Source of the DNA: an uncultured Gammaproteobacteria bacterium | Lineage (GTDB): Bacteria; Patescibacteriota; Microgenomatia; Daviesbacterales; UBA10151 | DNA length: 64,000 nt | Assembly: GCA_964392925.1 (NCBI GenBank) | Contig: CAYMRP010000004.1 | Location: 71,184-135,183, forward strand | Direction: 5' to 3' | In this document: in pieces, positions 13,529 through 29,266 of the stretch | Layout: each line of letters begins with the position of its first letter | Position numbering within the stretch: position 1 is the first letter of the stretch | Position numbers and translations under genes: made by a program | Notes under the pieces: generated by a model | The model's input: the letters and a program-made list of their open reading frames with translations, nothing else | What the model was told of the DNA's origin: nothing | The model's database searches: none

Positions 13529-16500
13529 ATGAATCTGGGAATAGATGTTATGGGTTTAAACATGAGCAATTTAGATATCATCATCCCGGTTAAAAACGAA
13601 GAAGGCAATATTCTTGCCTTAGTCCAGAGAATCAGTCAAGCAATGAAGCTTGGAAATCTTTCCTATAAAATGATTTTCATCGATGATAATTCAAGCGATA
13701 AAACTGTCTCCTCTCTAGAAATACTAAAAAAAATCTATCCAATTGAAATACATCCAAAAAAGGGCAAGCCAGGCAAAGCTTATTCAATAATTGAGGGAGT
13801 CGATTACGCAACCAGCGATAACATCGCCATGATCGATGCCGATCTTCAATACCCCCCAGAAGTTTTGCCTCAAATGCTCAAACAATTAGCAGATTCAGGG
13901 GTAGTAATCGCCCGCCGGAAAACAGCCCAGGGCTCAAAGTTGCGAAGATTCGTCAGTAAAGCTTTTACCAATGTATTTGGCGGCCTTCTTCACAACCTAA
14001 ACGTTGATGTTCAATCAGGACTCAAAGTCTTCAAAAAAGAAGTAATTGAAAAAATAGACCCCAAGAAAATAACACCTTGGACTTTAGACCTCTCACTGGT
14101 TTTAGTTGCCCGGGATTTAGGATTAGGCATTTCAGAAGTTGATATTGAATTTGATAAAAGAAAAAATGGTAATTCAAAAGTAAGTTTAGTCAGAACTTCA
14201 ATTGAAATCGGCAAAAACGCTTTAAAGCTTAAGTTCTTTAGAAAAAGACAATTCACTATTAAACCAACTAAAGAAAACTCCATGATCGGTGGAGGCATAA
14301 TACTTAAGGGTAAAAAATATATTACTCACACCACCTTAGAAGATAAGCATCTCGCTCTCAAAACATTTAGCACCACCCAAAAGTTCATTATTGGCTCACT
14401 AGTTACCGCTGCCATAGTTGGTTTAATCACAAATCCTCTTGCTGCAATTTTAACTATAGTCGCGATTCTCAGCGTAATTTATTTTATTGACGTTGTTTTT
14501 AATATTAGTGTTGTTCTGAAGAGTCTTCATTTTCCGCCAGAAATTAAAATACCCTCGGAAGACATCGAGGCTGTAGATGATAGTAAATTACCAACCTATA
14601 CAATTCTCTGTCCTCTCTATCGAGAAGCGGATGTATTGCCGCAGTTTTTGGAGTCTATCGAAAAACTTGATTGGCCTAAAAGTAAGCTTGATGTCATACT
14701 TTTACTTGAGGAAGATGATAAAGAGACTGTCGCTGAAATTAGTAAAAAAAGACTTCCATATTACGTCAGGGCTTTAATTACTCCCGACTCTCAGCCTAAA
14801 ACAAAGCCCAAGGCCTGTAACTACGGTTTAGCCCATGCTAACGGTGAATACCTAGTTATTTATGATGCCGAAGATCGACCTGATCCAGACCAATTAAAAA
14901 AGGCCTATCTCGGCTTTAAAAATTCCGGATCTAAAATTGTCTGCTTGCAGGCAAAATTGAACTATTTTAATCCTCACCAAAATTTACTCACCCGTTTCTT
15001 TACCGCTGAATATTCACTCTGGTTCGATGTTATGCTACCGGGACTCCAGTCTATTAATACTGTGATCCCTCTGGGCGGTACCTCAAATCACTTCAGAACC
15101 GCCACCTTAAGAGATCTCGAAGGATGGGATCCATTCAACGTCACAGAGGATTGTGACTTAGGAGTGAGAATCTTTAAAAAAGGCTGGTCAACAGCAATTA
15201 TCGATTCAATAACTCTAGAAGAAGCCAATTCAAATTGGGCTAATTGGATCAGGCAGCGTTCAAGATGGCTCAAAGGTTATATGCAAACCTACCTGGTTCA
15301 TATGCGTAATCCTTTCAGTTTTATTGCTCAAAACGGCTGGCACGCTTTTGTTTTTCAACTAATTATTGGTGCCCGTATCTCGTTCATGCTTATTAACCCG
15401 ATTCTTTGGTTAACGACTCTTTCCTATTTTGCTCTCTACGCCTATGTTGGTCCGGCAATTGAAGAGATTTTTCCTTCAGCAATATTCTATATGGCGGTCT
15501 TTTCTCTTTTAGTCGGTAACTTCTCATATATCTATAACTACATGATAGGTGCCTTAAAGCGCGAGCACTATTCGCTTATTAAGTTCATTTTCTTGATCCC
15601 AATCTATTGGCTGGTGGCATCCTACGCAGCTGGAGTGGCTGCTTATCAATTAATTGTTAAACCTCACTATTGGGAAAAAACTGTCCACGGTCTCCATATC
15701 AAAAAAATGACTATAGAGAGTATAAAAGAAGAAATACTGCCCACGCTTACTGCCGATTTAATTAAGCCCTCTGACGGAAGAATGTCATTCTACAAGAAGC
15801 TATCCTTACCAAAAGCTTTAATACCAAGTGCAATTTACACCTTAGCTACTTTTATCTCAGGGATTCTTAACCTAGGATTTAATGTCTTCTTAGGTAGAGT
15901 AATCAGCTTTGAGAACTTAGCGACCTTAAGTTTAGTAAGCAGTTTTTTGTATTTTTCTTCAGTGCCTCAGAACTCCTTACTAAGCACTATCACCCATAAA
16001 GTTGGTTATCTAGAAGGTAAAGGTAAGTTAACATCAGCACTTCATTTTTTTAAACAGGCAACAAATAGATCGCTTTTAATATCTTTTATTGCCTCGGCTG
16101 CATGGCTTTTTTCAATTCCCTTTCTAATGGATTATTTCCAATCAGATGATATATTTCCTTTTCTTCTCTTTACCCCTGTTTGGACACTTGGTACGGTTTT
16201 CGCTCTGATGAAGGGGTTTTTAGTAGGGAGATTAATGCTTGCCAGAGTAGGGTTTATTCTTTTTGCTGAAACTGTATTTAAATTTAGCATAGCGCTCATT
16301 TTTATATATTTTAATCTTTCCCACTGGGCATTTGTTGCTCTACCAGGATCGATTGTGCTCAGCGCAATTCTGATAATTCTTATCTCGGGAAAACTACTTA
16401 AAGTGCCAGAGAATGCTCCACAGTTAAAAAATGAATTTAGCTTTCCTCTTAAGTTCTATTCTGCTTCTGCCCTATCAATACTTGCACCCATTGCCTTTTT

Positions 16501-18274
16501 AAGTATGGATGTCCTCTTGGCTAAGCACTACTTAGCTCCCGTTGAAGCGGGTAAGTACGCCTTGCTTTCTGTCATTGGAAAAATCATTTTCTTTATGGGT
16601 GCATTAGCTAATCAGCTAGTGCTGCCTCTGGTTAGTCGAAATGAGGGCGCGGGTCGAAGTTCAGAAAAGTTTCTTGGCTGGGTATTTATTGGAACATTCT
16701 TAGTCACAAGTCTGGGCTTCATTTTCTGGGGTTTACTTGGAGGCTATACAGTACCTCTAGTTTTCGGAGAAAAAGCCAATGAAATAACACAATTCTTAGA
16801 AATATTCACTTTTACAATGATATGTTTCTCACTCTCAAGAGTATTAGTGTCTTATTTTCTGGCCAAAAAAGTTTACACCTTCCCTATTGTTTCATCTCTA
16901 ATTGTTATTCTCCAATTCGCTTTAATTTATTTTAATCATTCCGACTTAGGGTCAATAGTTTTTGATATGTTCTTGGTCGGAGTAATTGATTTACTTGCTA
17001 TGGCTATTCTTTATTTATTCTTGCCGTATGTAAAAATATTTGAAAATAATGTTAGCGATTTATTTGGATTATTTACCCGATCACTTCCTTTTAGTAAAGC
17101 TGAAGCTAACAAAAAAGTCCGAATTCTCATATTCAATTGGAGAGATATCAGCCATGTCTGGTCTGGTGGAGCAGAGAACTATATTCATGAATTAGCAAAA
17201 CTTTGGGTGGAACAGGGTTATCAGGTAACTATTTTTTCAGGTAACGATAACTTAAGTAAACGGTATGAAGTTTTAGACGGTGTACAAATAGTTAGAAGGG
17301 GTGGGTTCTATACAGTCTACTTCTGGGCAGTTTTATATTATATTTTCCGTTTCCGCGGTCTATATGATTTAGTTATAGATTCTGAAAACGGCATCCCTTT
17401 CTTTACGCCTCTATACGTTGGAAAAGCAAAGCTTTTATTAATTCATCATATCCACCAAGAAGTTTTCAGAAATCACCTTTCTTTGCCACTGGCAATTTTT
17501 GCATCATTCCTTGAAGGCAAACTTATGCCATTTATTTATAAAAATCAAAAAGTTATAACAGTTTCTGAATCTTCAAAGCAGGAAATCTTAAAACTGGGCA
17601 AGGATGTATTTGGTGCAATTGAAATTGTTAATCCTGGAATTCACACTCATAAATTCCTCACCCTAAAGAAAACAACAAATCCATCATTCTTATATCTCGG
17701 CCGACTGCAGCCTTACAAGAATATTGAAGTAGCAATTAAAGCATTCGCACAAGTTATTTCTAAATACCCTGATGCCACTTTAACAATTGCCGGTTTTGGT
17801 GAAAGTCTGATATCTCTTAAAAAACTAGCCGGCCAATTATCAATAGAAAAATCAGTTATTTTTACTGGCCGTGTCACTGATGAGAGGAAGTACGAGCTGT
17901 TATCAGAAAGCTGGGTTATGCTTCAGCCCTCAATGATTGAAGGCTGGGGGATCACTGTTATAGAAGCAAATGCGTCCGGAACTCCTGTAATCGCCTCAAA
18001 TGTTAACGGTCTTCGTGATTCAGTTGTCGATGGTAGAACCGGCATGTTAGTTAGACCAAAAGATGTTCAGATGTTTGCCCGGGTCATGACAGATCTTATT
18101 GAAAATAAAGAATTTAGAGATTACTTATCAGCTCAGGGAATTAAGTGGTCACAAAATTTTTCTTGGAAAAAACAGGCTGAAAAATATACTCACATTATAG
18201 AAGAGACCCTCTCTGATCATACCAAGAAAGGTATAAATTTAACAAAATCATGGAGTTTAAATTTTAGAAAGTAA
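13529..18274 (+). CDS. Giant multidomain glycosyltransferase: GT2 (polyprenyl-P sugar transferase-like) + processive GT2 synthase (QxxRW) + polytopic flippase-like TM block + C-terminal GT4
   Basis: aa 13-230: IIPVKNEE...FIDDNSSD...IDAD. aa 350-600: ILCPLYREADVL, YDAEDRPD, QRSRWLKG. aa 600-1090: at least 12 TM helices. aa 1100-1560: the GT4 EX7E block EGWGITVIEANASGTPVIAS. Confidence 0.7.
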   Translation: MNLGIDVMGLNMSNLDIIIPVKNEEGNILALVQRISQAMKLGNLSYKMIFIDDNSSDKTVSSLEILKKIYPIEIHPKKGKPGKAYSIIEGVDYATSDNIAMIDADLQYPPEVLPQMLKQLADSGVVIARRKTAQGSKLRRFVSKAFTNVFGGLLHNLNVDVQSGLKVFKKEVIEKIDPKKITPWTLDLSLVLVARDLGLGISEVDIEFDKRKNGNSKVSLVRTSIEIGKNALKLKFFRKRQFTIKPTKENSMIGGGIILKGKKYITHTTLEDKHLALKTFSTTQKFIIGSLVTAAIVGLITNPLAAILTIVAILSVIYFIDVVFNISVVLKSLHFPPEIKIPSEDIEAVDDSKLPTYTILCPLYREADVLPQFLESIEKLDWPKSKLDVILLLEEDDKETVAEISKKRLPYYVRALITPDSQPKTKPKACNYGLAHANGEYLVIYDAEDRPDPDQLKKAYLGFKNSGSKIVCLQAKLNYFNPHQNLLTRFFTAEYSLWFDVMLPGLQSINTVIPLGGTSNHFRTATLRDLEGWDPFNVTEDCDLGVRIFKKGWSTAIIDSITLEEANSNWANWIRQRSRWLKGYMQTYLVHMRNPFSFIAQNGWHAFVFQLIIGARISFMLINPILWLTTLSYFALYAYVGPAIEEIFPSAIFYMAVFSLLVGNFSYIYNYMIGALKREHYSLIKFIFLIPIYWLVASYAAGVAAYQLIVKPHYWEKTVHGLHIKKMTIESIKEEILPTLTADLIKPSDGRMSFYKKLSLPKALIPSAIYTLATFISGILNLGFNVFLGRVISFENLATLSLVSSFLYFSSVPQNSLLSTITHKVGYLEGKGKLTSALHFFKQATNRSLLISFIASAAWLFSIPFLMDYFQSDDIFPFLLFTPVWTLGTVFALMKGFLVGRLMLARVGFILFAETVFKFSIALIFIYFNLSHWAFVALPGSIVLSAILIILISGKLLKVPENAPQLKNEFSFPLKFYSASALSILAPIAFLSMDVLLAKHYLAPVEAGKYALLSVIGKIIFFMGALANQLVLPLVSRNEGAGRSSEKFLGWVFIGTFLVTSLGFIFWGLLGGYTVPLVFGEKANEITQFLEIFTFTMICFSLSRVLVSYFLAKKVYTFPIVSSLIVILQFALIYFNHSDLGSIVFDMFLVGVIDLLAMAILYLFLPYVKIFENNVSDLFGLFTRSLPFSKAEANKKVRILIFNWRDISHVWSGGAENYIHELAKLWVEQGYQVTIFSGNDNLSKRYEVLDGVQIVRRGGFYTVYFWAVLYYIFRFRGLYDLVIDSENGIPFFTPLYVGKAKLLLIHHIHQEVFRNHLSLPLAIFASFLEGKLMPFIYKNQKVITVSESSKQEILKLGKDVFGAIEIVNPGIHTHKFLTLKKTTNPSFLYLGRLQPYKNIEVAIKAFAQVISKYPDATLTIAGFGESLISLKKLAGQLSIEKSVIFTGRVTDERKYELLSESWVMLQPSMIEGWGITVIEANASGTPVIASNVNGLRDSVVDGRTGMLVRPKDVQMFARVMTDLIENKEFRDYLSAQGIKWSQNFSWKKQAEKYTHIIEETLSDHTKKGINLTKSWSLNFRK

Positions 18275-18276
18275 TT

Positions 18277-18840
18277 ATGGGAAAAACGATATCAATCATC
18301 TTACGAGTCTTTAAAAAAACACAAGCCAAAATATATACCAGATTTTGGAAACTATTTCTAAAATCCTTAGGGAAATACAGTGTTCTATATCCTGGGAGCA
18401 CCTTTGCCGGGGCATGTAATATCCAAATAGGTCATCACGTATTTATTCATCAGGGAGCACATTTATATACTGGCGGCAGCAAAATTACCATTGGGAACTA
18501 CGTACTCATTGGTAGAAACTGCTCAATTATCGCCGCCAACAGAGACTATGCGAATTGGACTCGGCCTATTTATTTTGGTACAGAATATGTGAAAAAACCT
18601 GTAGTTATAAAAGATGATGTTTGGATTGGTGAACGGGTAATTATTACCGCTGGTGTGACCGTTGGGCGAGGAGTTGTAATAGGTGCGGGTTCAATCGTAA
18701 CAAAAGATGTACCTGATTTCGCTATTGTTGCTGGTGTTCCTGCCAAGTTAATTAAATATCGATTTGATAAAAAAACTATTCAGCGAGCGATGCGGATAGA
18801 CTTGTCCAAATTCAAAGATATCAAAAAGGAGAAAAAATAA
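18277..18840 (+). CDS. Hexapeptide-repeat sugar O-acetyltransferase (left-handed beta-helix)
   Basis: IGERVIITAGVTVGRGVVIGAGSIVTKDVPDFAIVAGVPAKLI, as in the WbbJ/Mac-type family. Confidence 0.7.
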   Translation: MGKTISIILRVFKKTQAKIYTRFWKLFLKSLGKYSVLYPGSTFAGACNIQIGHHVFIHQGAHLYTGGSKITIGNYVLIGRNCSIIAANRDYANWTRPIYFGTEYVKKPVVIKDDVWIGERVIITAGVTVGRGVVIGAGSIVTKDVPDFAIVAGVPAKLIKYRFDKKTIQRAMRIDLSKFKDIKKEKK

Positions 18841-20198
18841 TGTCCGGAATAATTACTAGAATTTCTACTTTGGCTTCCAAAAACAAACTTATAACTACAG
18901 CTGGATTATTTGTGGCAGCCTCGATGTTGGCAAATATATTCAATTGGCTTTTAAGTATCCTAGCCGGCCGGGTTTTAGATACAGATGAATTTGCAGTCTA
19001 CGCTGTTTTTGTAAGCATATTAGGCATTCTGTCTGTTCCCTCAAACGCTTTAGCAACAACAATCAGCAGATACTATGCTTATTATTCGGGAAAAGAGAGC
19101 AGTTCAGATATTAAAGCTTTGATTAACTATTATAAAAAAGTAGCGCTGATTTTAGGAGTTCTTGGTGTCCTTATAGTCTATTTCACAAACGACTATATCA
19201 GAGCTTTTTTAAAGCTACCATCAGATAGCATGGTCGTTGGGTTTGCACCCGTTGCTTTCTTTCTTTTTACGGCGGCTTACTTCAGAGGAATTTTAAAAGG
19301 AAAACTAAAATTCGGCATAGTTGGACTGATGATGATAGTAGAAACATTTACTAAGCTGATACTTTTATTCTCCGGATACATGTTAAACCTTCCTGTTCTC
19401 GTAATAGCCATCATTTCCTTACCACTTTCTTGGTCGCTTGCATCTCTGATCGGGTTTTTAGCTACTTTTGAAAACGATGATAAGACTAGAATCACAAAGA
19501 AAACAGGAACCTTAGAATTTTCAAAATTAGATAGTCATTTTTTTATGACAAACGCTTTTTTTGCTAGTGTTGGTATGATGCTAATGAATAGTGTCGATAT
19601 TTTGCTAGTAAAACATTATTTTTCCGATTTTGAAGCTGGAACTTATGCTCTATTAAGCCTTTTCGGGAAAATTCTTTACTTTGGAGGTGGAAGCTTCATA
19701 GAATTATTTGTTCCACTCACCGCTAAGTCACATGCGAAAAATTCTAACAGTAGAAATCAATTTTTTAAACTTCTCGTATTGGTATCATCAGTAGCGATCC
19801 CCACACTAATTCTATTTCTTTCATTCCCAAACTTCACAACATACCTATTCTTAAAGGATAAAGGCTACCTAGTAATTCCGTATTTGGCACCTTATCTTAT
19901 TGCAACAACATTCCTGCTTTATACCAATTGTTTTAATGCATATAACACGGCTAAAAAACATTTCATCTCGACATACCTGATAACTGCGATGGCATTAGTC
20001 CAGGGAGCTTTGATTATGATATGGCACAAATCGCTTACTGATATTGTAAACATTGTTCTTTTCACTCAAGTTGTACTTTTTGTACTAGTTCTGTTTTATG
20101 AATTTTTTATATCTCCAAAACACTCTGAAGAAAAATCAACTTCGTCACTATGGACAAAATGGTCTCCAATTTGGGAAAGGACTAACAACAATGTCTAA
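18840..20198 (+). CDS. Polysaccharide biosynthesis protein / Wzx-like MOP flippase
   Basis: About 12 predicted TM helices, ~450 aa, located in the glycan locus. Start is coupled to the upstream stop. Confidence 0.55.
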   Translation: MSGIITRISTLASKNKLITTAGLFVAASMLANIFNWLLSILAGRVLDTDEFAVYAVFVSILGILSVPSNALATTISRYYAYYSGKESSSDIKALINYYKKVALILGVLGVLIVYFTNDYIRAFLKLPSDSMVVGFAPVAFFLFTAAYFRGILKGKLKFGIVGLMMIVETFTKLILLFSGYMLNLPVLVIAIISLPLSWSLASLIGFLATFENDDKTRITKKTGTLEFSKLDSHFFMTNAFFASVGMMLMNSVDILLVKHYFSDFEAGTYALLSLFGKILYFGGGSFIELFVPLTAKSHAKNSNSRNQFFKLLVLVSSVAIPTLILFLSFPNFTTYLFLKDKGYLVIPYLAPYLIATTFLLYTNCFNAYNTAKKHFISTYLITAMALVQGALIMIWHKSLTDIVNIVLFTQVVLFVLVLFYEFFISPKHSEEKSTSSLWTKWSPIWERTNNNV

Positions 20199-21195
20199 AA
20201 CTTTATTAGTACAACAGCAACAGCTCCACTTTTTCTTGGTGATGCTTATGTCGTTATTCAGAAAAAAACAAACAGCCATCTCGCCTCTCCCAGCTTTAGT
20301 AAATGGCTTCGCTCTAGAGAGGGAGCTAAATTCAGGTGAGTTAATAAAGCCTCACAGAATAGGAATATACAAAAATGATCGCGGACAAAAAGGTGTAGTT
20401 AAATGGTGGAGTGGAAACAAAAAAACATTTGCAGCTATATCATTAGAGAATGAACTTTCAATGGCCAAATTATTAGAGAAATTAAACCATCGGACAATTA
20501 AAAATCAAAAACCAAATTTGACTCAAATTGGAAGTGCACATGTTATCACAAGTAGAGTAAATGAAAAAACAGTTTTTATAATGTCTGAATTTCATGAGGG
20601 AAAACTTCTTAGAGAAGTAGCAAAGGCGATCCAGATTAAAGAGTATAAACGGGCACTAAACTATTTAAGTAGTCTATCTGGCAATTTAACCCAAATTGAA
20701 ATTGACGCGCTTCCCAAGAGAACATATATTGATTACCTATTGCTTTACCCAGCTTTGTTAAGTGTCTCTATTCTAAGACAACCGAGATATTTTTGGACAT
20801 TTATAAAAGGCCTGCCCCCAGTACTTTTCTCACTTACAAAAATTAGAAAACATCCTTTAACCATAGTGCATCGAGATCTTCACACAATGAATATTATCTA
20901 TTCTCCATCTCGCACAACCATCATCGATCTACAGCGTGCTGTTCTAACTTACGGGTTATATGAGCTGGTAACAACTTTAGCAGTTGAATGGGACAACAAG
21001 GAATTACGTCAGGCGATTCTAGATTATATTTACTCATCATATTCGAATTCTTTAACTATCTTTAGAGGACTAATGATTTATTTTGCAACTCATGCTCTGA
21101 CTGCCAATAACTTGCCGGAGTATTATCTTAGCCGCTACAAAGCAATGCTTAACTTCGCGGTCTATAAATATTCCAACTATTATTTAAAAACATGA
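20191..21195 (+). CDS. Kinase-like phosphotransferase (APH/choline-kinase fold)
   Basis: Catalytic-loop-like HRDLHTMNII followed by IIDLQ (compare HGDLHxxN...IDxE of APH/ChoK). The ATG at 20191 overlaps the upstream stop by 8 nt. Confidence 0.45.
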   Translation: MSKTLLVQQQQLHFFLVMLMSLFRKKQTAISPLPALVNGFALERELNSGELIKPHRIGIYKNDRGQKGVVKWWSGNKKTFAAISLENELSMAKLLEKLNHRTIKNQKPNLTQIGSAHVITSRVNEKTVFIMSEFHEGKLLREVAKAIQIKEYKRALNYLSSLSGNLTQIEIDALPKRTYIDYLLLYPALLSVSILRQPRYFWTFIKGLPPVLFSLTKIRKHPLTIVHRDLHTMNIIYSPSRTTIIDLQRAVLTYGLYELVTTLAVEWDNKELRQAILDYIYSSYSNSLTIFRGLMIYFATHALTANNLPEYYLSRYKAMLNFAVYKYSNYYLKT

Positions 21196-22097
21196 AAACA
21201 AAAAAAACATTAACTATTTGTATACCCGCATTTAATGAGGCAGAAAATCTAAAAAAACTGCTTCCATCCCTACTCGCTCAAAAAAGGTCAACTTACATTC
21301 TTTCTAAAATAATAGTAGCCTCTGATGCAAGCACTGACACTATATATAATGTGGTAAAGAAAATAGGAAGCAAAAAAATAAATGTTATACATGGAAAGGA
21401 GAGAAAAGGTGTCGCTTATCGTCAAAATCAATTATTAGAAAAATCGACCTCTGATATTGTAGTTCTTCTTAATGCTGACATCGCTGTTATCGATTTCAGA
21501 TATATTGAGAAATTAGTTGCTCCAATTATAAAAAATAAAGCCGATATGACTTCATCAGCTCTCATGGAAACAAGTCCCCGCACTTTTTTCGAAAAAGCCC
21601 TATATACCAGCATGCAAGCAAAAAAATATGCTTTCAATAAATTCAAAGACGGAAATAATGTCTATACCTGTCGCGGACCTGCAAGAGCTTTTAGTAAAAA
21701 TCTCTATAAAATAATTCGTTTCCCTTCTGGTATCGGGGAGGATGCATACTCCTACCTTTTTACAATCAAACGAGGCATGCGATTTATCGCTGTTAAAAAC
21801 GCTACAGTCTACTATTCCTTGCCCACAACCTTTAAAGATCACAAAAGACAAAGCCTGCGTTACCTGAGTTCTAAATCAAATTTTACTTCCAAATTTGGCG
21901 AAAAGTTTGTCAAAGATGAATACAACCTTCCCCTAAAATATATATTGGAAGCAGCTCTGTTCTACTCAATGTCGAATCCTATCTATATGCTTTGCTACTT
22001 CATGATCTTCATGCAAATAAATCTTAGATCTCTATTCAAAAACACCCAGAGTGAAACATGGGAGGTGGCAACAAGTTCAAAGTTGCTAAATGTATAA
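21192..22097 (+). CDS. Family 2 glycosyltransferase
   Basis: LTICIPAFNEAENL...VASDASTD GT-A N-terminus. ATGA overlap with the upstream gene. Confidence 0.65.
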   Translation: MKTKKTLTICIPAFNEAENLKKLLPSLLAQKRSTYILSKIIVASDASTDTIYNVVKKIGSKKINVIHGKERKGVAYRQNQLLEKSTSDIVVLLNADIAVIDFRYIEKLVAPIIKNKADMTSSALMETSPRTFFEKALYTSMQAKKYAFNKFKDGNNVYTCRGPARAFSKNLYKIIRFPSGIGEDAYSYLFTIKRGMRFIAVKNATVYYSLPTTFKDHKRQSLRYLSSKSNFTSKFGEKFVKDEYNLPLKYILEAALFYSMSNPIYMLCYFMIFMQINLRSLFKNTQSETWEVATSSKLLNV

Positions 22098-22905
22098 AAT
22101 GAAAACCAATCCAATATTTATCATTCGCCGTTATATATACAAAACTCTAAATCTGGTCGATCGCCTTTTTGACAACAATACTAAAGCATTTGTTCTTTGC
22201 TATCACGGAATTGACTCCAGTGACTGGAGGTTTAGTATTTCGCTTATCATGTTCAAAAAACAAATTAAGCATCTGAAAAATGAAGGCTACTCTTTCATAA
22301 CAACTAAAGACATATTGGAATATTGCCAAGGTAAAAAAATTCTACCTAAGCCTAGTGTTGCAATAACTTTCGATGATGGATACAAAAGCATGAAAATAGT
22401 CGCTAAATTTCTCAAAGAAGAAAAAATTGAACCAACCCTATTCCTCCTCTCTCAAACAGTAAAACCTAACTGGAAAGAAATTGGTAAAAAGGACAGTTTC
22501 TTAAATTTCTCTGAGATAAAATCCTTGGAAAGAAATGGCTGGTTAATGGGAAGTCACAGCAGCACACATGCTAACCTTTCAGAGCTATCAAAAGAAGAGT
22601 TGGTAAATGAAATCTCAAATTCTAAAAAAGTGTTAGAACAAAAGCTTAAGAAATCTATTTCAGATTTTGCATACCCAAGAGGTAAATACAATGATTCCGT
22701 ACTAAAGCAAGTAAAAAAAGCTGGATTTAAAGCGGGTTGGACTATGGACGATGGATTTTTGGGTCCACAAACAAACTTACTTCAAATACCCAGAATAGGA
22801 GTTGACAGAACCCATTCCTTAGAAGAGTTTAAAACGCTATTCAGCCCATCGGCAATATTAATGCGAAAACTTATAAAACAATCTCCCATAGGAGGATTAC
22901 TATGA
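22090..22905 (+). CDS. Polysaccharide deacetylase (CE4 / NodB homology domain)
   Basis: TFDDGYKS (motif 1), GSHSSTHANL (motif 2) and AYPRGKYN (motif 3). Confidence 0.7.
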   Translation: MYKMKTNPIFIIRRYIYKTLNLVDRLFDNNTKAFVLCYHGIDSSDWRFSISLIMFKKQIKHLKNEGYSFITTKDILEYCQGKKILPKPSVAITFDDGYKSMKIVAKFLKEEKIEPTLFLLSQTVKPNWKEIGKKDSFLNFSEIKSLERNGWLMGSHSSTHANLSELSKEELVNEISNSKKVLEQKLKKSISDFAYPRGKYNDSVLKQVKKAGFKAGWTMDDGFLGPQTNLLQIPRIGVDRTHSLEEFKTLFSPSAILMRKLIKQSPIGGLL

Positions 22906-24074
22906 AAAGTAAACAAATTGATGTTGTAGTGAAATATTTTCACCCTGTTGCGGCGGGTATAGAAACTAACATACTTAATACATATAGTGTGCTTGCCCAA
23001 ATGGGTTGGGATGTTCGTATTCACACATCTACAAACACTCACACGGGTAAGGACATACTTCCAAAATTCGAAATAATCAGAGGCTTAAAAGTATATCGCT
23101 ATAAACATCATTGGTATGGAATACAGCCTAATATAGACTATACGAAAACTTCTTTAGTTTGTATCCATAATTTTAATATCTTTCCTCATATTCAAATAAT
23201 GACTAAAGCGATACTGGGTAACCTAACGAAAACAAAGAAGTACGGGCTGGTCTTGACCCCTCACGGGGGTTACACTCCTGATTGGAACGTTTTTGGACCA
23301 ATATCAAAACAAATTAAGAAAATCTATCACAGAACCCTAGGTAAAATTCTTATTAATTTATCTTGTGATGCAATAAGAGCAGTCTCAGTATGGGAGAAAG
23401 ACCAAATAATTAGCCAGGGAGTTAATAAAGATATTATTCAAGTTATAACAAATGGGGTAGAGAATGAAGCATTTGTAGATTTAAATAAAGAAGCAAGTAA
23501 ACAGGTCAAGAATCTCGCTCACTCATTAGGCGACTATATAATCCAGGTTGGAAGAATATACCCAATTAAAAACTACGAAACGACAATTCGAGCTCTTAGT
23601 CTGATCCCAGGTAACCTAAAATATGCTATTACTGGAGCAGATTCAGAGAAATCCGGTTATTTTAATTCCCTCAAAAAATTAATTAAATCGTTGGGGCTTG
23701 AAGAAAGAGTTGTCTTCACGGGAGTCATTTCCGGGGTCGATAAATTCTATCTCATGAATAAAGCCCAGATGATGGTCCATATGGCACATTGGGAGAGTTT
23801 TTGTAATGTGGTTCACGAAGGAATGAGCCAAGGATTAGTCTGTATCGTGGCCAACAATACTGCACTTCCATATCTAATAAAAAATAATGTGAACGGATAC
23901 TGTGTTGAAACTTTTGACTATAAATCTTTAGCAAGCAAGATTGAATATGTCATAAAAAACAAAAACAAGAAAGAAATTATTCAAATCGAAAAGAATAATA
24001 AAAATATTGGTTCTCAGGAAACTTGGGGTGCAGTTGCTGAAAAAATGAATAACTTGTATCTAAAGCTAATATGA
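22902..24074 (+). CDS. Family 4 (GT-B) glycosyltransferase
   Basis: The C-terminal ESFCNVVHEGMSQGLVCIVANNTALPYLI block resembles the GT4 EX7E region. Confidence 0.6.
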   Translation: MKSKQIDVVVKYFHPVAAGIETNILNTYSVLAQMGWDVRIHTSTNTHTGKDILPKFEIIRGLKVYRYKHHWYGIQPNIDYTKTSLVCIHNFNIFPHIQIMTKAILGNLTKTKKYGLVLTPHGGYTPDWNVFGPISKQIKKIYHRTLGKILINLSCDAIRAVSVWEKDQIISQGVNKDIIQVITNGVENEAFVDLNKEASKQVKNLAHSLGDYIIQVGRIYPIKNYETTIRALSLIPGNLKYAITGADSEKSGYFNSLKKLIKSLGLEERVVFTGVISGVDKFYLMNKAQMMVHMAHWESFCNVVHEGMSQGLVCIVANNTALPYLIKNNVNGYCVETFDYKSLASKIEYVIKNKNKKEIIQIEKNNKNIGSQETWGAVAEKMNNLYLKLI

Positions 24075-24964
24075 AAAAGAAATTAAAAATATCAATCGCT
24101 ATACCTACTTACGAAGCCGGAGAAAGTCTTGTTGTCACACTCCGCTCTATCTACAATCAAACTTTTTATTCGGAAATAGATAAAATTTATGTGGCTATAG
24201 ATGGTAATAAGATAAAAAGCAAAATCATGAATAAAATAAAAAATCCAAAGCTGAGTCTACTTCACTATAAAAGAAGAGAAGGCCAAGCCCAAAGAATTAA
24301 TAATTTATTCAAAAAATCGAGTTCTGACATTTTGGTATTAACCAACGATGATATCTACTTAACCAATACCTTAGTCGAGGAAATTGTCCGCACTTATAAT
24401 GGTGACCTGATATTAGGAAATGTCCTAGGTATCAAGCCTCAGACATTCATTGAGAGACTCGTCTTGGTAGGAGCAAATATTAATAAAAGAGTCGCAGAAT
24501 CCTGGAATTCAGGCGACAATTATCTTTCCTGCAACGGCAGACTGATCATACTTTCTAAAAAATTATATAAAAGAATAGAGCTGCCGAAAACAATTTGGAA
24601 TAGTGATGCTTATATTTATTTCTATGCAAAAAAACTTAAATCTGAAGTTAATATCGGCAAAGAACTAAAAGCATATTTCAGAGCTCCTAGCAATCTTGAA
24701 GAGCATATTAAGCAGAGTGATAAGTTTCAAATGTCTCGGGAGGAAAATATGTCTTATTTTAAAGAGGATATATCTAAACAATACGACATACCTAAAGCTC
24801 TAAAATTTAAATCCCTCATTCTTGAATTCCTATTAAACCCAGTGATTACTTTTTGCTACGTACTTATTTATATCTATACAAGAACCCATAGAAAATACTA
24901 TAATATACAACATAAGGATTTTTGGGAAACTGATAAAACAACTAAGCAATTGAAAATATCATGA
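24071..24964 (+). CDS. Family 2 glycosyltransferase
   Basis: ISIAIPTYEAGESL...VAIDGNK GT-A N-terminus with a C-terminal TM helix. ATGA-coupled. Confidence 0.6.
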   Translation: MKKKLKISIAIPTYEAGESLVVTLRSIYNQTFYSEIDKIYVAIDGNKIKSKIMNKIKNPKLSLLHYKRREGQAQRINNLFKKSSSDILVLTNDDIYLTNTLVEEIVRTYNGDLILGNVLGIKPQTFIERLVLVGANINKRVAESWNSGDNYLSCNGRLIILSKKLYKRIELPKTIWNSDAYIYFYAKKLKSEVNIGKELKAYFRAPSNLEEHIKQSDKFQMSREENMSYFKEDISKQYDIPKALKFKSLILEFLLNPVITFCYVLIYIYTRTHRKYYNIQHKDFWETDKTTKQLKIS

Positions 24965-26511
24965 AAAAAATAATTACTTCAATACTATTAATAATCTTCA
25001 GTTTCGTAATTCTAACTCTTTCTATAAGGGGCATAGCTGGTAATCCTAGTGATGCTACCATTAACGAACCGTACTGGAAAGATAATGGTCCTTTAGAGCT
25101 CTCACCTGAAAGAGGTAAATTTGCTCTGACATATTCCTTCGTTGAGGATAATTCTGTTCATTTCTCGGTTCCAATAGCAAAATTCTCGACACCCGACTTA
25201 GGTTATAGTAAAGGTAATTATGTCTCACTTTTTGCACCAGGCGTAGCCTATATAACAATACCAGGATATATTATAGGTAAGGAATTTGGCTCTTCGCAAG
25301 TTGGCACTTATGCTGTAATAGCATTATTCGCGATAATGAACGCAGCCTTAATAAATTTAATCCTCCTAAGGCTTGGTGTAAGGAGTATTTTATCTGCTAT
25401 AAGTAGTATCATTTTTCTATTCGCGACACCGGCTTTCGCATATGCCGTATCTCTATATCAGCATCATATATCCACATTTATAATACTTCTAAGTGTATAT
25501 CTGCTGCAAAGATTTAAAGGAATTTGGCCACTGGTAATTATATGGTTTATCTTAGCCATATCTTTAGCAGTAGATAATCCAAATCTTTTTATGGTTTTCC
25601 CGATCGGGATATATGCATTAGGGCGAGTAGTTTACGCAAAAATTGATCAGAACAAGGTTAAGGTAGGAGTGAAGACATTAGCAGTTCTGACTTTAGTCAC
25701 TGCTTTAGTCCCTCTTTTACTTTTCGGGTGGTTCAACAAAATATCTTATGGCGACGCTATGAGACTTGGAGGTACTGTGGCATCGGTTAAAGAAATAGAT
25801 GAACAAGGTAAGCCAGCTGCTCCAAAAAATACAGGAACAACTAATGTTGCCCAGTTTATCAATCCTGATCAGCAAAAAAAGTCAGCTCTCAGATTCTTTA
25901 AGACCAGAAATATATTAAACGGCTTTTATATTCATTTTATTAGTCCTGACAGAGGCATTATATATTTTACACCGGTCATACTATTGGGTTTCATTGGAAT
26001 GTTTTATTTTTACAGGAAAGATTCGGGATTAACGTCTCTTCTTATTGCAATCATGGGAACAAATATCCTGCTGTATTCTATGTGGGGTGATGCATGGGGA
26101 GGATGGGCGTTTGGTTCGAGATATTTAGTACCTTCTTATGCAATACTCGCCATTTTCCTTGGTGTCGCCCTAAACAGGTTCCATCGGAATATTATATTTA
26201 TACTTGTGTTCTTATCTCTTTTTGTATATTCGGCAGCTATAAATACCGTAGGTGCTATTACTTCCAATAGAAATCCTCCTCAGGTTGAAGTTTTGGGTCT
26301 GGAGCAGCTAACAGGCAAACAAGAAAAATACACTTATGAAAGAAATTTTGACATGCTAGGCATTAATCAATCTAAATCTTTTGTATTTAATACTACAGTT
26401 AACAAATATTTCACTGCATGGGAATACTACTATTTCCTGACGGGGCTAATTATTCTCTCAGTGGCATTGCCATTAATTACACTTAACGCACTAGACTGGA
26501 GAAGAAAATGA
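24961..26511 (+). CDS. Polytopic membrane protein, putative GT-C fold glycosyltransferase (PMT/ArnT-like)
   Basis: About 11 TM helices and ~516 aa, inside the glycan locus. No soluble catalytic domain. ATGA-coupled. Confidence 0.4.
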   Translation: MKKIITSILLIIFSFVILTLSIRGIAGNPSDATINEPYWKDNGPLELSPERGKFALTYSFVEDNSVHFSVPIAKFSTPDLGYSKGNYVSLFAPGVAYITIPGYIIGKEFGSSQVGTYAVIALFAIMNAALINLILLRLGVRSILSAISSIIFLFATPAFAYAVSLYQHHISTFIILLSVYLLQRFKGIWPLVIIWFILAISLAVDNPNLFMVFPIGIYALGRVVYAKIDQNKVKVGVKTLAVLTLVTALVPLLLFGWFNKISYGDAMRLGGTVASVKEIDEQGKPAAPKNTGTTNVAQFINPDQQKKSALRFFKTRNILNGFYIHFISPDRGIIYFTPVILLGFIGMFYFYRKDSGLTSLLIAIMGTNILLYSMWGDAWGGWAFGSRYLVPSYAILAIFLGVALNRFHRNIIFILVFLSLFVYSAAINTVGAITSNRNPPQVEVLGLEQLTGKQEKYTYERNFDMLGINQSKSFVFNTTVNKYFTAWEYYYFLTGLIILSVALPLITLNALDWRRK

Positions 26512-28166
26512 TAAAAATAAATAAGTTAGCTGAAATAGAAATAGAGCTTAATGTCTCTTTACTAGACAAAATTAAAGATTTTTTCTCTAAGTATGGACTC
26601 TACTTCATAATTTTAATACTTTCAGGCATTTCCGTAGGCGGATTTCTATACTTTCTTGAAAACGGATTAGGGCTCGCATACAACGATGCCAGATCCCATT
26701 TAAATATTGGCCGAAGAGTAGTAGAAGGGTTAAAGCCAGGTTTCGCCCAAATTGGTAGTGTCTGGTTACCTCTACCTCACGTTCTAATGATTCCTACAAT
26801 CTGGAATGATTTTATGTGGCACACAGGTTTATCCGGTGCAATTGTCTCGATGTCCTCCTTTATTGGAACAGGTGTATTAGTCTATAAGTTCCTTCAAAAA
26901 CTAGGAGCAGGATTAATGGGTAGATGGATGGGAGTTCTTGTGCTGGTAGCAAACATTAATATTCTATATTTGCAATCTACCGCAATGACTGAACTATTAT
27001 TACTTTTCACAATGACCGCCGCAGCCTACGACCTAATGATCTGGCACCAATCAAGCAGAATTATTAATCTGGTTAAAGCCGCATTTTGGATAATGTTATC
27101 AACTCTCGTCAGATATGATGGTTGGTTCCTATTTTTCGTATCAGTTATTCTTATAGTCATTAATCTTATGCGGGTGGGTAGTTTTAAAATAAAGGATCTC
27201 CCTGCTAAATATTTCAAAATAGAGGGAGTCGTCATTGCTTTCTGTACGTTAGCAGGTCTTGGAGTTTTTCTATGGTTACTATGGAACCTATTAATTTTTA
27301 AAGATCCGTTTTTCTTTGCCTTTGGCCCATACTCAGCTCATGCCCAGCAACAGCAATTAGAAAGTGCGGGGGAGTTAATTACCAAACATGATTGGTTTCT
27401 TTCAGCTAAGTTTTATACATATGCTCTAGCCTATAATTCCGGAGCTTTCTCAGCACTTCTTGGGATATTTGGGTTAGTAGCTATTTGGTTCGATAAGAAG
27501 CTATTAACACCGGTAAAATTTGCAGTGTTTGCTTTAGTTGCACCACTTTTATTCAATATATTAGCATTATACCTTGGGCATTCAGTTCTATTTATCCAAG
27601 GACTTTCTGGTGATGTCTGGTTCAATGTCCGATACGGCATTATGATGATGCCATCAATAGCAATCTTTATTGGTTTTCTTATCGATAGGGTTAAGAATCT
27701 TAGAGCAGTCCTTATCGGGCTTTTACTACTTACGATTTTCTTCCAGTTCCAAAACTTTGATGCAGTTACTATTGATGATGCCAGAGTTGGATCTTCTCAG
27801 AAAAATGTCAGCGAAGTATCAGATTGGCTATCTCAAAATGCTAAAGATAGGGATGGGTTCATTTTAATCTCAGCAGCCTCACACGACGCTATTATTTTTT
27901 CATCTGGATTACCAATGAAAAAATTTATCCATGAAGGTACCGGCAGATATTGGGAATCCGCAACAACAAATCCTGAAAGATGGGCAAGATGGATTATTGC
28001 CAGAACTCATGACAATAACGATTCTACGTGGAGAGCTGTATCGCAAACTCCAGATATTAATAACTATATTCTTGTTAAGTCTTACCCGTTTGCAGATATC
28101 TACGAACTAAAGCCAGAGTTCCTCCCTAACCTCAATACAAAACCTATCTTAGGCAAGCAAAAGTAG
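26508..28166 (+). CDS. Polytopic membrane protein with a C-terminal extracytoplasmic domain, putative GT-C fold glycosyltransferase
   Basis: About 11 TM helices. YNDARSH in the first loop is a candidate DE/DD-type motif. C-terminal ~150-aa soluble domain. ATGA-coupled. Confidence 0.4.
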   Translation: MIKINKLAEIEIELNVSLLDKIKDFFSKYGLYFIILILSGISVGGFLYFLENGLGLAYNDARSHLNIGRRVVEGLKPGFAQIGSVWLPLPHVLMIPTIWNDFMWHTGLSGAIVSMSSFIGTGVLVYKFLQKLGAGLMGRWMGVLVLVANINILYLQSTAMTELLLLFTMTAAAYDLMIWHQSSRIINLVKAAFWIMLSTLVRYDGWFLFFVSVILIVINLMRVGSFKIKDLPAKYFKIEGVVIAFCTLAGLGVFLWLLWNLLIFKDPFFFAFGPYSAHAQQQQLESAGELITKHDWFLSAKFYTYALAYNSGAFSALLGIFGLVAIWFDKKLLTPVKFAVFALVAPLLFNILALYLGHSVLFIQGLSGDVWFNVRYGIMMMPSIAIFIGFLIDRVKNLRAVLIGLLLLTIFFQFQNFDAVTIDDARVGSSQKNVSEVSDWLSQNAKDRDGFILISAASHDAIIFSSGLPMKKFIHEGTGRYWESATTNPERWARWIIARTHDNNDSTWRAVSQTPDINNYILVKSYPFADIYELKPEFLPNLNTKPILGKQK

Positions 28167-28175
28167 TATTCTAAT

Positions 28176-29186
28176 ATGATCAAAAAAGTATTAATAGTCT
28201 CAGCTATAACAATAGTCATATTCTTGTTATTCTCCTACTTCAACTCAAAAATTGAAGAATATCATAAAGAATCTGCTCTAAAAAGAATTCATCTGTGGGA
28301 TTTTCGTTCGGTTGATACTGTAAAATATTCAAGAGATCTCGCACGCGAAATGATGGAGGATCAAGAATTCGATACCATTATTAGTAAACAAGTTAGTGAC
28401 ATAGCATTGCTAGGAGCTTCACATATTGCCATAAGTACTCCATACGATGCCGAATTCCTACCTTTCCTGAAAAGATGGGTTACCGTTGCAAGAGAGAAGA
28501 ATCTTAAAGTCTGGTTTAGAGGTAATTTTTCAGGCTGGGAAAATTGGTTTGGCTACGAAAGAATGACCAGAGAAGAACATAAAATATTACTCAAAGAGTT
28601 TATTGAAAATAATCCTGGTCTATTTGAAGATGGAGACATTTTTACCTCATGTCCTGAATGCGAGAACGGTGGACCAGGGGACCCGAGGCATAATGGTGAT
28701 GTAATAGGACATCGTAAATTCCTAATTGATGAATACAATATTTCTAAAGAATCATTTGCCAATATTGATAAGCAAGTTCAGCCTGGTTTTTATTCTATGA
28801 ATTATGATGTCGCAACTCTAGTTATGGATGAGGATACAACAAATAAGCTCGGAAACTTAGTAGTTATTGATCATTACATCAAAGATCCTGAAAAACTTGC
28901 CAAAGACGCAAGAAAGATAGCTGAGAAATCAAAAGGTGAAGTTGTTCTGGGTGAATTTGGTGCACCGATTCCTGACATACATGGAGCAATGACAGATAAG
29001 GCACAGGCTGACTGGATTAACCAAGCTTTGCAAGAAGTGAGTCTTGTTGAAGAAGTAACTGGTGTAAATTACTGGACTAATGTTGGAGGTTCTACCGAAT
29101 TGTGGAATTCAGGAGGTACTCCCAAAGCAGCTGTAGATATGATAAGAGAATATTATAAAAAAACAAAACTAATATCTCCACGTTGA
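28176..29186 (+). CDS. Membrane-anchored putative glycoside hydrolase (TIM-barrel, GH5/GH26-like)
   Basis: N-terminal TM helix. VLGEFGAPI carries a GEFG nucleophile-type motif. Aromatic-rich WFRGNFSGWENWFGYE strand. Confidence 0.3.
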   Translation: MIKKVLIVSAITIVIFLLFSYFNSKIEEYHKESALKRIHLWDFRSVDTVKYSRDLAREMMEDQEFDTIISKQVSDIALLGASHIAISTPYDAEFLPFLKRWVTVAREKNLKVWFRGNFSGWENWFGYERMTREEHKILLKEFIENNPGLFEDGDIFTSCPECENGGPGDPRHNGDVIGHRKFLIDEYNISKESFANIDKQVQPGFYSMNYDVATLVMDEDTTNKLGNLVVIDHYIKDPEKLAKDARKIAEKSKGEVVLGEFGAPIPDIHGAMTDKAQADWINQALQEVSLVEEVTGVNYWTNVGGSTELWNSGGTPKAAVDMIREYYKKTKLISPR

Positions 29187-29266
29187 TTTAAACCCATAGT
29201 CGTGATACAATAACCCATAATGTTTTTTATTATGATAAAAAACATGCGAAATTTTTAATAAAACTT

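Follow-up and report, generated by a model that had tools for sequence, protein, structure and literature searches.

Organization of the locus

The 64,000-nucleotide stretch of contig CAYMRP010000004.1 analyzed here (the window), from a genome placed in the Microgenomatia, contains a run of glycan-assembly genes on its forward strand (Table 1). The genes g1–g11 encode a glycosyltransferase (GT) fusion protein, an acyltransferase, a flippase, a kinase, three soluble-type GTs, a de-N-acetylase, two polytopic membrane proteins, and a membrane-anchored hydrolase-like protein. The conserved unit passes the end of g11 at position 29186, takes in the sortase substrate g12 and the sortase g13, and ends at 30485. 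Comparison with related loci showed that g1 and g10–g13 form a conserved frame, which encloses an exchangeable cassette of genes g2–g9. We propose that the locus is one copy of a lineage-wide Microgenomates locus for envelope glycoconjugate assembly, in which the frame is conserved and the cassette is specific for the glycan type (probability approximately 0.6).

The exchange of the cassette is apparent from loci with near-identical frames, between which it is replaced as a block with breakpoints where g1 ends and g10 starts. In one such pair (L017 and L030), g10 is 93% and g11 85% identical, whereas the identity of g9 is 38%, and the DNA similarity is lost at the end of g1 and returns at the start of g10. 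In another pair (L040 and L067), the corresponding identities are 95%, 98%, and 51%. The nearest relative of the window (L087) has a g10 that is 80% identical, and its downstream genes for PPIase, YdjM, NrdR, and RNR are approximately 82% identical. In place of g2–g8, it carries genes for a GT2, an RmlA-like protein, a dehydratase, an RmlC-like protein, an NAD-binding enzyme, and a GT4. The DNA similarity of the window to this locus ends at 18171, occurs in patches inside g9, and is full again from 26649. The median pairwise identity within the families is 64% for g10, 56% for g11, and 36% for g9. Because of this low identity, and because it is swapped between near-identical frames, g9 was assigned to the exchangeable part. 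No repeats that would point to a mobile element were found at the flanks of the cassette in a repeat search.

The contents of the interval between g1 and g10 vary among the related loci and include GT2s, GT4s, CE4 deacetylases, APH kinases, hexapeptide and GNAT acyltransferases, methyltransferases, PIG-L proteins, and Rml-like sugar-nucleotide genes. The cassette of one Daviesbacteria locus (L003, 5546-8438) contains a PIG-L gene together with two Acetyltransf_6 genes. This pairing hints at the de-N-acetylation of an amino sugar followed by its re-acylation.

The frame is widespread. Relatives of g10 are encoded in 402 species-level genomes, and the names of the homologues include Daviesbacteria, Levybacteria, Gottesmanbacteria, Woesebacteria, Curtissbacteria, Amesbacteria, WWE3, Patescibacteria, and Microgenomates. 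A protein identical to g10 is present in the wastewater metagenome ERR977425, and the genome to which the window belongs is that of an uncultivated, ultra-small, Daviesbacteria-like bacterium. Synteny was counted in 79 related loci, using as denominators the loci with room for the feature in question. A g9-type gene lies immediately upstream of g10 in all 70 loci, and g11 follows g10 in 65 of 68. A g12-like protein is encoded in 44 of 61 loci, a sortase in 38 of 58, and a large g1-type protein no more than 10 kb upstream in 36 of 49. Judged from these sequence comparisons, the locus is lineage-wide across the Microgenomates, which belong to the candidate phyla radiation (CPR). Many public records of metagenome-assembled genomes that contain the locus bear titles such as "uncultured Gammaproteobacteria", "Bdellovibrionales", or "Bathyarchaeia". 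Because the gene content is of the Microgenomates type, such titles look like placeholders or the names of wrong bins.

Table 1 Features of the locus and of its surroundings in the window (TM, transmembrane segment; AF2, AlphaFold model)
Feature	Length (aa)	Position	Strand	Description	Basis
g1–g11		13529-29186	+	locus, 11 consecutive open reading frames	
g1	1581	13529..18274	+	four-module frame protein	Pfam, PDB searches, motifs, BLASTP
g1 module 1	residues ~1-230	13529-14220	+	GT2 polyprenyl-phosphate sugar synthase (predicted)	Pfam, PDB matches
g1 module 2	residues ~300-710	14426-15658	+	membrane-embedded cellulose-synthase-like GT2	BcsA match, motifs
g1 module 3	residues ~750-1170	15776-17038	+	Wzx/MOP flippase	paralogy to g3
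g1 module 4	residues ~1195-1581	17111-18274	+	GT4	Pfam
g2	187	18277..18840	+	left-handed beta-helix (hexapeptide) acyltransferase, WcaF/WbbJ-like, no TM	Pfam Hexapep 3.2e-13
g3	452	18840..20198	+	separate Wzx-like (MOP) flippase, ~10 TM	Pfam Polysacc_synt, TM scan
g4	334	20191..21195	+	APH/protein-kinase-fold kinase	Pfam APH 32.7 bits vs cutoff 23.2
g5	301	21192..22097	+	GT2 glycosyltransferase	Pfam Glycos_transf_2 1.6e-23
g6	271	22090..22905	+	CE4 de-N-acetylase	Pfam Polysacc_deac_1 1.3e-25
g7	390	22902..24074	+	GT4 glycosyltransferase, Agl16-like	Pfam
g8	297	24071..24964	+	GT2 with one C-terminal hydrophobic segment	Pfam Glycos_transf_2 1.5e-10, TM scan
g9	516	24961..26511	+	probable GT-C-like membrane glycosyltransferase, ~9 TM	weak profile matches
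g10	552	26508..28166	+	GT-C fold glycosyltransferase (model), small C-terminal soluble domain	AF2, Foldseek
g11	336	28176..29186	+	N-terminal membrane anchor and extracytoplasmic (beta/alpha)8 clan GH-A barrel (model)	AF2, Foldseek
Promoter-like TTGATT-17-TACAAT with TG extension		29183..29211	+	in the 80-bp gap before g12	consensus match only
g12	212	29267..29905	+	signal peptide, ~110-aa 4-Cys domain, Ser/Gly-rich linker, LASTG, TM, KRR tail	translation
g13	192	29907..30485	+	membrane-anchored sortase	Pfam Sortase 4.6e-19
VanW-like		9965-10639		cell-wall neighborhood directly upstream of the locus	
YkuD L,D-transpeptidase		10642-11343	-	upstream neighborhood	
Membrane-anchored protein		11418-12503		beta-helix-like repeats	weak DUF1565 match
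S11 D,D-carboxypeptidase		12558-13439		upstream neighborhood	
Membrane H+-pyrophosphatase		41629-43632		downstream, unrelated to the locus	827 bits
APH(6)-like aminoglycoside/hydroxyurea kinase		47257-48102		downstream, unrelated to the locus	
Pro/Thr/Ser/Ala-rich low-complexity protein	502	51850-53358	-	single TM near residue 390	no Pfam match

Gene packing and transcription

The original prediction, made from the sequence of the window, placed g1–g11 and their tight packing correctly. It spoke of thirteen genes; the locus contains eleven, as does the list given in the prediction itself, and thirteen can be obtained only if the g1 fusion is counted three times or if g12 and g13 are added. The predicted upper limit of 10 bp for the gaps was borne out, since all ten junctions are at 9 bp or less. 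Eight of them are overlaps, and the remaining two leave 2 bp and 9 bp between the genes. The seven overlaps that had been listed are all present, five as 4-nt ATGA overlaps (21192, 22902, 24071, 24961, and 26508) and two as 8-nt ATG..TAA overlaps (20191 and 22090), and an eighth, TAATG at 18840, had been overlooked. A start of the kinase gene g4 at 20098, with a 101-bp overlap, was rejected; the start at 20191 agrees with the public gene call. Of the 36 same-strand junctions outside the locus, 9 measure 10 bp or less in this window, and the probability of ten such junctions in a row at this background rate (p^10) is approximately 1e-6. The packing is therefore beyond chance, real, and unusual for this genome.

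A consensus scan of the locus showed no excess of promoter-like or terminator-like sites over shuffled sequence (50 promoter-like sites versus 63.6 +/- 8.5 in the shuffles; 17 terminator-like sites versus 13.5 +/- 3.5). Because of the tight junctions, the lack of such an excess, and the gene order kept in approximately 80 related loci, it is plausible that g1–g11 are co-transcribed as one operon, as had been suggested. The 89-bp gap upstream of g1 holds a TGnTATTAT element. The promoter-like element between g11 and g12 is a possible secondary start for g12 and g13. An Rfam scan found a single tRNA-Glu, distant from the locus.

The four-module protein g1

The protein g1 had been predicted as a fusion of three GTs. 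Its GT2, GT2, and GT4 domains were recovered by Pfam (residues 17-145, ~355-636, and 1213-1540), and the prediction missed a fourth module, a Wzx/MOP flippase, located between the second GT2 and the GT4. All seven PDB matches of residues 1-330 are to DPMS, GtrB, or ArnC, with E-values from 4e-19 to 4e-11; the E-value is 4e-19 for DPMS (5mlz) and 7.5e-16 for GtrB (5ekp). The NCBIfam scores of this module for ArnC (57 bits) and PgfS (69 bits) are both under the equivalog cutoffs. Module 1 is predicted to be a polyprenyl-phosphate sugar synthase.

Module 2 matches BcsA (3e-10 in PDB) and also PgaC and CelA, and it contains the motifs DAED446-449, TED539-541, and QRSRW576-580 between hydrophobic segments. 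Its NCBIfam score for PgaC_IcaA is 81.6 bits versus a cutoff of 422, and Pfam Glyco_transf_21 likewise matches it. Residues ~760-1145, which form the flippase module, are paralogous to g3 (BLASTP, 24% identity over 408 columns, E 9e-21). The MatE match of this module is weak, and PF01943/PF13440 matches are recorded for several g1 relatives.

The best 120 homologues of g1 are all full length (1535-1607 aa) and at least 48% identical, and those with a name are called just "glycosyltransferase" and come from Microgenomates lineages. In a few g1 relatives, the protein is divided between modules 2 and 3.

The membrane proteins g9, g10, and g11

The three proteins g9, g10, and g11 gave no significant Pfam match at E-values up to 10, and PDB sequence and profile searches yielded nothing meaningful for any of them. 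Two GT-C membrane glycosyltransferases had been predicted at g9 and g10. For g10, the prediction is upheld by the predicted fold, whereas the signals for g9 are weak.

More than 1900 homologues of g10 are 57-80% identical to it, and all are annotated as hypothetical. In an alignment of 42 sequences, more than 100 columns are invariant, among them the NDAxSH motif immediately after the first transmembrane segment (Y58-N59-D60-A61..S63-H64). At least seven hydrophobic segments were found by a transmembrane scan. With the outward orientation that we infer for it, the conserved acidic residue D60 would lie in the first loop on the extracytoplasmic side. The AlphaFold (AF2) model of g10 has a predicted local distance difference test score (pLDDT) of 77. 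Foldseek matched the model to STT3, AftA, ArnT (TM-score 0.50), DPY19, ALG9, and PMT in PDB with a probability of 1.0, whereas non-GT-C membrane proteins had TM-scores of at most 0.15. According to the model, g10 has the GT-C fold. It joins none of the described GT-C families, such as PMT, PMT_2, YfhO, STT3, and ArnT, in Pfam (E<=10), NCBIfam, or PDB sequence and profile searches. The assignment of g10 as an STT3-type oligosaccharyltransferase was rejected: chains of this enzyme head the Foldseek list, but ArnT gives the highest TM-score, and g10 has a small C-terminal domain and lacks the WWDYG motif. Because the DPMS/GtrB-like module of g1 is co-conserved, the use of a polyprenyl-phosphate-linked sugar donor by g10 is suggested.

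The family of g9 has 1584 representatives at E<1e-3. The invariant residues are D79, Q167-H168, and D377..G380-G381-W382..R387-Y388. The NCBIfam LA_3751/2 score of g9 is 36.6 bits, below the cutoff of 200. Among 47 family members, PMT_2 was matched by four (best 2.6e-7), Mannosyl_trans4 by two, and Alg9-like by one, and the hhalign comparison of g9 with g10 was weak (probability 27%, E 7e-4). These weak matches suggest that g9 is probably a GT-C-like membrane glycosyltransferase. Some g9-type relatives (P0243, P0246, and P0244) carry N-terminal fusions to APH and CE4 domains (P0243), to PIG-L and Acetyltransf_6 (FemAB-like) domains, or to GT2 domains. The fusions functionally tie g9 to the cassette enzymes and, from the topology, would place these enzymes on the cytoplasmic side of the membrane.

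The third protein, g11, had been described as a GH5-like hydrolase with a membrane anchor. The anchor and a barrel of clan GH-A were supported, and the GH5 label was dropped as too specific, because Foldseek matched the AF2 model (pLDDT 91) approximately equally to GH2, GH5_4, GH53, GH164, and GH157 (E ~1e-8, TM-scores 0.5-0.6). The model indicates that g11 is glycoside-hydrolase-like and of clan GH-A, and sequence searches place it in no known family. It has more than 2300 homologues. Three glutamates are invariant: E260 is located at the end of the strand 255-261, and E161 and E163 lie a few residues past the short strand 155-156. Approximately one quarter of the g11 relatives listed (P0177, P0184, P0209, and P0212 among others) are 410-427 aa long and contain an extra CarboxypepD_reg-like domain (PF13715/PF13620).

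The cassette enzymes

The domain assignments withstood verification with hidden Markov models in eight cases, from g1 through g8, all by Pfam. The NCBIfam equivalog cutoff was reached by none of the locus genes. The acyltransferase g2 scored 76 bits for the WcaF family, which is below the cutoff, and a gene of its type is present in 7 of 49 related loci. The Polysacc_synt score of g3 (34.8 bits) is above the cutoff of 28.2, as expected for a Wzx of the MOP family. A separate homologue of g3 was found in none of the 79 other loci, and the gene is specific to this genome among the sampled loci.

The kinase g4 has the catalytic loop HRDLHTMN (227-234) and D246, as read from the sequence; PDB sequence and profile searches gave no relative of it, just an insignificant match. 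The de-N-acetylase g6 contains the CE4 motifs TFDD, HSSTH, and YPRG. The motifs in both proteins support their being active enzymes. In NCBIfam, g6 resembles PgaB and IcaB most, with scores under the cutoffs, and a CE4 gene is present in 25 of 49 related loci. Neither a signal peptide nor a transmembrane segment was found in g6 by inspection of the translation and a transmembrane scan. For this reason, and because CE4 domains are fused N-terminally to g9-type proteins (P0243), g6 is probably cytoplasmic, and so probably is g4. The remaining cassette enzymes are GTs, of which g5 is weakly AglG-like (NCBIfam), and g7 has an Agl16 score of 183.8 bits versus a cutoff of 575.

The sortase substrate g12 and the sortase g13

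The sortase g13 contains the histidine (VLYGHN), cysteine (TLYTC), and arginine residues of its family. In 45 of 47 sequences of the g12 family, the C-terminus consists of VLGLAxTG(N/D), a transmembrane segment, and a basic tail, so that the sorting motif is LAxTG, not LPxTG. The protein is the sole one in the window with an L[AP]xTG tail. The ~110-residue N-terminal domain has four invariant cysteines (C32, C74, C76, and C131) and the motifs GTHGI, QCFC, and WGL..PYLAxN (alignment A4), and it is without a match in Pfam and PDB. Three relatives of g12 bear an additional fn3 domain. Serine and threonine make up 45% of the linker of g12 in the window. We consider g12 a sortase substrate and, from its sequence, a candidate glycan acceptor.

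The linkers vary among the g12 homologues of loci L017, L030, L045, and L048: in several relatives the linker is made up of SDGR/SDGK repeats, and in others it is strongly acidic (rich in D, E, and K) and not rich in serine and glycine. The SDGR/SDGK repeats recall the staphylococcal SD-repeat regions, which are glycosylated by SdgA and SdgB.

A cell-wall-related neighborhood, comprising the VanW-like protein, the L,D-transpeptidase, the membrane-anchored protein with beta-helix-like repeats, and the D,D-carboxypeptidase, lies directly upstream of the locus. The low-complexity protein encoded at 51850-53358, in a stretch of raised GC content (0.467 versus ~0.39), may be a disordered surface protein and a further candidate target of O-glycosylation.

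Proposed pathway and alternative explanations

Based on the predicted enzymes, their topology, and their neighbors, an assembly pathway can be proposed. At the cytoplasmic face of the membrane, module 1 of g1 would load a sugar onto polyprenyl phosphate. A lipid-linked oligosaccharide would be built by the soluble GT2s and GT4s and may be decorated through de-N-acetylation by g6, acylation by g2, and possibly phosphorylation by g4. The MOP modules, module 3 of g1 and g3, would flip the lipids across the membrane. On the outside, g10 would transfer a conserved sugar onto an acceptor in the envelope, and the cassette-matched g9 would transfer or polymerize the variable glycan. The product may finally be trimmed or released by g11, by analogy with BcsZ or PslG. 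With synthase and flippase joined in one protein, g1, and with g10 as the conserved transferase, g1 and g10 together would follow the three-component logic of extracytoplasmic glycosylation, in which a synthase is followed by a flippase and a GT-C transferase. The leading candidates for the acceptor are the sortase-anchored g12 and the cell wall, and g12 is the more specific of them. A decorated cell-surface polysaccharide or protein O-glycosylation had been suggested by the original prediction; the general reading as a glycan pathway is supported, and it was incomplete in that the fourth module of g1, g12 and g13, and the exchange of the cassette were missed.

The pathway may take the specific form of protein O-glycosylation similar to that of the Pgf system of Streptococcus mutans, which we regard as a tentative possibility. 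In that case, the polyprenyl-phosphate sugar made by module 1 of g1 would be flipped, g10 and/or g9 would glycosylate the linker of g12, the sortase would anchor g12, and the cassette would diversify the glycan. In most loci, g12 and the sortase follow directly after g9–g11 (44/61 and 38/58), the linker in the window is rich in serine and threonine, no other protein of the window has an LAxTG or LPxTG motif, and module 1 resembles PgfS, GtrB, and DPMS. The Pgf cluster also joins a GT-A, two GT-C proteins, and wall-anchored substrates rich in serine and threonine (10.1101/2024.05.05.592596). However, the linker is rich in serine and threonine in only 18 of 45 g12 relatives, being acidic or nearly absent elsewhere, and some loci hold g9–g11 without a neighboring g12 or sortase. 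Furthermore, g11 and g12 are parted by the 80-bp gap with the promoter-like site, neither GT-C protein matches the YfhO family, and at least six GT domains together with a cellulose-synthase-like module seem more than simple O-glycosylation would need. Alternatively, module 2 of g1 could polymerize and export a beta-glycan resembling poly-N-acetylglucosamine, chitin, or cellulose, which the CE4 enzyme would partly de-N-acetylate and the GH-A protein would trim, as in the Pga/Ica, Bcs (BcsZ), and Psl (PslG) systems. The D,D,D,QxxRW-type motifs and flanking transmembrane segments of module 2, its matches to BcsA, PgaC, and CelA, the similarity of g6 to PgaB and IcaB, and the membrane-anchored glycoside hydrolase of the locus are consistent with such synthase-dependent export. 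It is nevertheless unlikely. The CE4 enzyme has no signal peptide or transmembrane segment, is found in relatives as a fusion on the cytoplasmic, N-terminal side of g9-type proteins, and belongs to the cassette, with presence in just 25 of 49 loci. Module 2 is also matched by Glyco_transf_21, and glycosyltransferases that act non-processively on lipids, for example those of GT21, have D,D,D,QxxRW-type motifs as well. Moreover, two MOP modules, a polyprenyl-phosphate sugar synthase, and two GT-C proteins would be left unexplained.

A classical Wzx/Wzy capsule or O-antigen pathway, in which repeat units on undecaprenyl diphosphate are flipped by Wzx, polymerized by g9 acting as a Wzy-like enzyme, and ligated to the wall, would agree with the Wzx-like modules, with the Rml-like sugar-nucleotide genes in the cassettes of relatives, and with the layout of O-antigen and cps loci, which have conserved flanks, a variable center, and a type-specific polytopic membrane protein. 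We consider this pathway improbable, because a WecA-, MraY-, or WbaP-type primer, Wzy, Wzz/PCP, or an LCP ligase was found by Pfam neither among the locus genes nor among 40 of the other genes of the window, the conserved GT2 resembles synthases of monophosphate-linked sugars rather than diphosphate primers, and the weak matches of g9 are to PMT_2 and Alg9-type GT-C proteins, not to Wzy. Finally, the packing could reflect the general compaction of a small CPR genome, with the genes encoding functionally independent GTs. Outside the locus, one in four same-strand junctions of the window is likewise 10 bp or shorter, and scattered GTs are abundant in CPR genomes (PMC5220378). Compaction is a very improbable explanation in view of the ten consecutive short junctions, the order and adjacency kept in approximately 80 loci from several candidate phyla-level groups, the fusions of cassette enzymes to g9 in relatives, and the fusion of four modules in g1.

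Several observations weigh against the proposed lineage-wide glycoconjugate locus. Since the genes scanned in the window, those of the locus among them, include no primer, Wzy, Wzz, or LCP ligase, the proposal does not account for how synthesis is primed and the product finally attached. The assignment of g9 to the GT-C proteins is weak. The residues E161 and E163 of g11 are within the context CPECENGG, not the canonical NEP. Approximately 30% of the loci with room for them carry no g12 or sortase, and the variability of the g12 linker described above also counts here. The GC content of the cassette is slightly lower than that of the rest of the window, but its GC content at third codon positions is the same, so the composition does not clearly point to horizontal transfer.

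Significance of the locus

The structure and biogenesis of the CPR envelope have been described as still unclear (PMC5220378). Cultivated CPR members are described as living attached to host cells (PMC11623550), and surface molecules are therefore central to CPR biology. As a candidate for the source of the principal variable glycan on the surface of Microgenomates, the locus is concrete and lineage-wide, and its conserved frame and cassette borders could be used for typing glycan diversity in metagenomes. If the glycan indeed sits on the sortase substrate, extracytoplasmic protein O-glycosylation of the Pgf type would be extended to CPR.

We speculate that the locus is a universal, serotype-like one in Microgenomates and perhaps in other CPR, in which a strongly conserved machine of g1 and g10–g13 displays a glycan, possibly on g12, and a freely recombining cassette with its matched g9 sets the glycan structure. 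In this full form, the idea is doubtful. If it is true, the hypervariable glycan would be a prime candidate for what determines host-cell or phage recognition in these presumed episymbionts, and g9, g10, g11, and the g12 domain would become four new protein families with defined roles.

The enzyme classes encoded in the locus are all known, and the sequence is public but unannotated. No prior description of the locus was found in the literature on CPR, Patescibacteria, or Microgenomates, which is weak evidence of novelty as the coverage was incomplete. The frame-plus-cassette organization, the four-module g1, the family-less GT-C protein g10, the swapped g9, the GH-A protein g11, and the link to an LAxTG protein and sortase appear to be undescribed. 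Fusions such as g1, in which a polyprenyl-phosphate sugar synthase is joined to a synthase-like GT2, a flippase, and a GT4, are rare, and g9, g10, g11, and the g12 domain represent four large unannotated families with testable roles.

Comparison with known systems

The locus shares features with several described glycan-assembly systems. Similar to Pga/Ica and Bcs, it encodes a membrane GT2 with DxD, TED, and QxxRW motifs, a PgaB/IcaB-like CE4 enzyme, and a glycoside hydrolase. However, the CE4 enzyme is seemingly cytoplasmic and dispensable, counterparts of PgaA, PgaD, BcsB, and BcsC were not seen, and the synthase-like module is part of a four-module protein. The serotype loci for O-antigen and capsule (cps) of Gram-negative and Gram-positive bacteria likewise have a Wzx-type flippase and conserved flanks, between which close relatives swap a block that encodes GTs, modifying and sugar-nucleotide enzymes, and a type-specific polytopic protein. 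The differences are that a primer, Wzy, Wzz/PCP, and a ligase of the known families were not found among the genes scanned, that the type-specific membrane protein is GT-C-like, and that the frame contains a GT-C protein, a GH-A hydrolase-like protein, a sortase substrate, and a sortase.

The archaeal Agl clusters for N-glycosylation (AglJ and AglD as DPM-like GT2s, AglR as Wzx-like flippase, AglB/STT3 and AglS as GT-C enzymes, and Agl16 as GT4) also use DPMS-like GT2s to charge monophosphate carriers, GT2 and GT4 enzymes for extension, a Wzx-like flippase, and two GT-C proteins, and the Foldseek list of g10 has STT3 chains near its top. In contrast, the NCBIfam scores of the locus genes are far under the equivalog cutoffs, g10 is without the large C-terminal domain and WWDYG motif of STT3, and the organism is a bacterium with peptidoglycan enzymes and a sortase. 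A GT2 synthase, a flippase, and a GT-C transferase are the constituents of the three-component extracytoplasmic glycosylation systems GtrA/GtrB/GtrC, CsbB-GtcA-YfhO, ArnC-ArnE/F-ArnT, and Ppm1-Pmt. The locus differs from them in that its flippase is of the MOP/Wzx type, in contrast to the small GtrA- or EmrE-type proteins (Pfam matched none of the locus genes to a GtrA-type small flippase), and in that the synthase and flippase are parts of one 1581-residue polypeptide. It also encodes a complete set of cytoplasmic GTs and, beside g10, another GT-C-like protein that is variable.

The Pgf cluster of S. mutans comprises PgfS, PgfM1, PgfE, and PgfM2, is associated with Cnm, CnaB, CbpA, and WapA, includes genes for sortase-anchored proteins whose disordered regions are rich in serine and threonine, and has outward-facing GT-C catalytic residues (10.1101/2024.05.05.592596; PMC5856776). 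In common with it, the locus encodes a GT-A/GT2 related to polyprenyl-phosphate sugar synthases, two polytopic GT-C or GT-C-like proteins, and a clustered sortase substrate with a linker rich in serine and threonine. Unlike the GT-C proteins of the Pgf cluster, g9 and g10 do not belong to the YfhO family and have no Pfam match of their own, while members of the g9 family match PMT_2 weakly. The synthase of the locus is fused to a synthase-like GT2, a MOP flippase, and a GT4, and it is accompanied by at least four further GTs, a CE4 enzyme, a kinase, an acyltransferase, and a GH-A hydrolase-like protein, with a variable middle part and a sortase substrate that is a candidate acceptor only. Although the comparison is weakened by the variability of the g12 linker and by the loci without g12, the Pgf cluster would be the closest functional analogue of the locus if g12 is the glycan acceptor.

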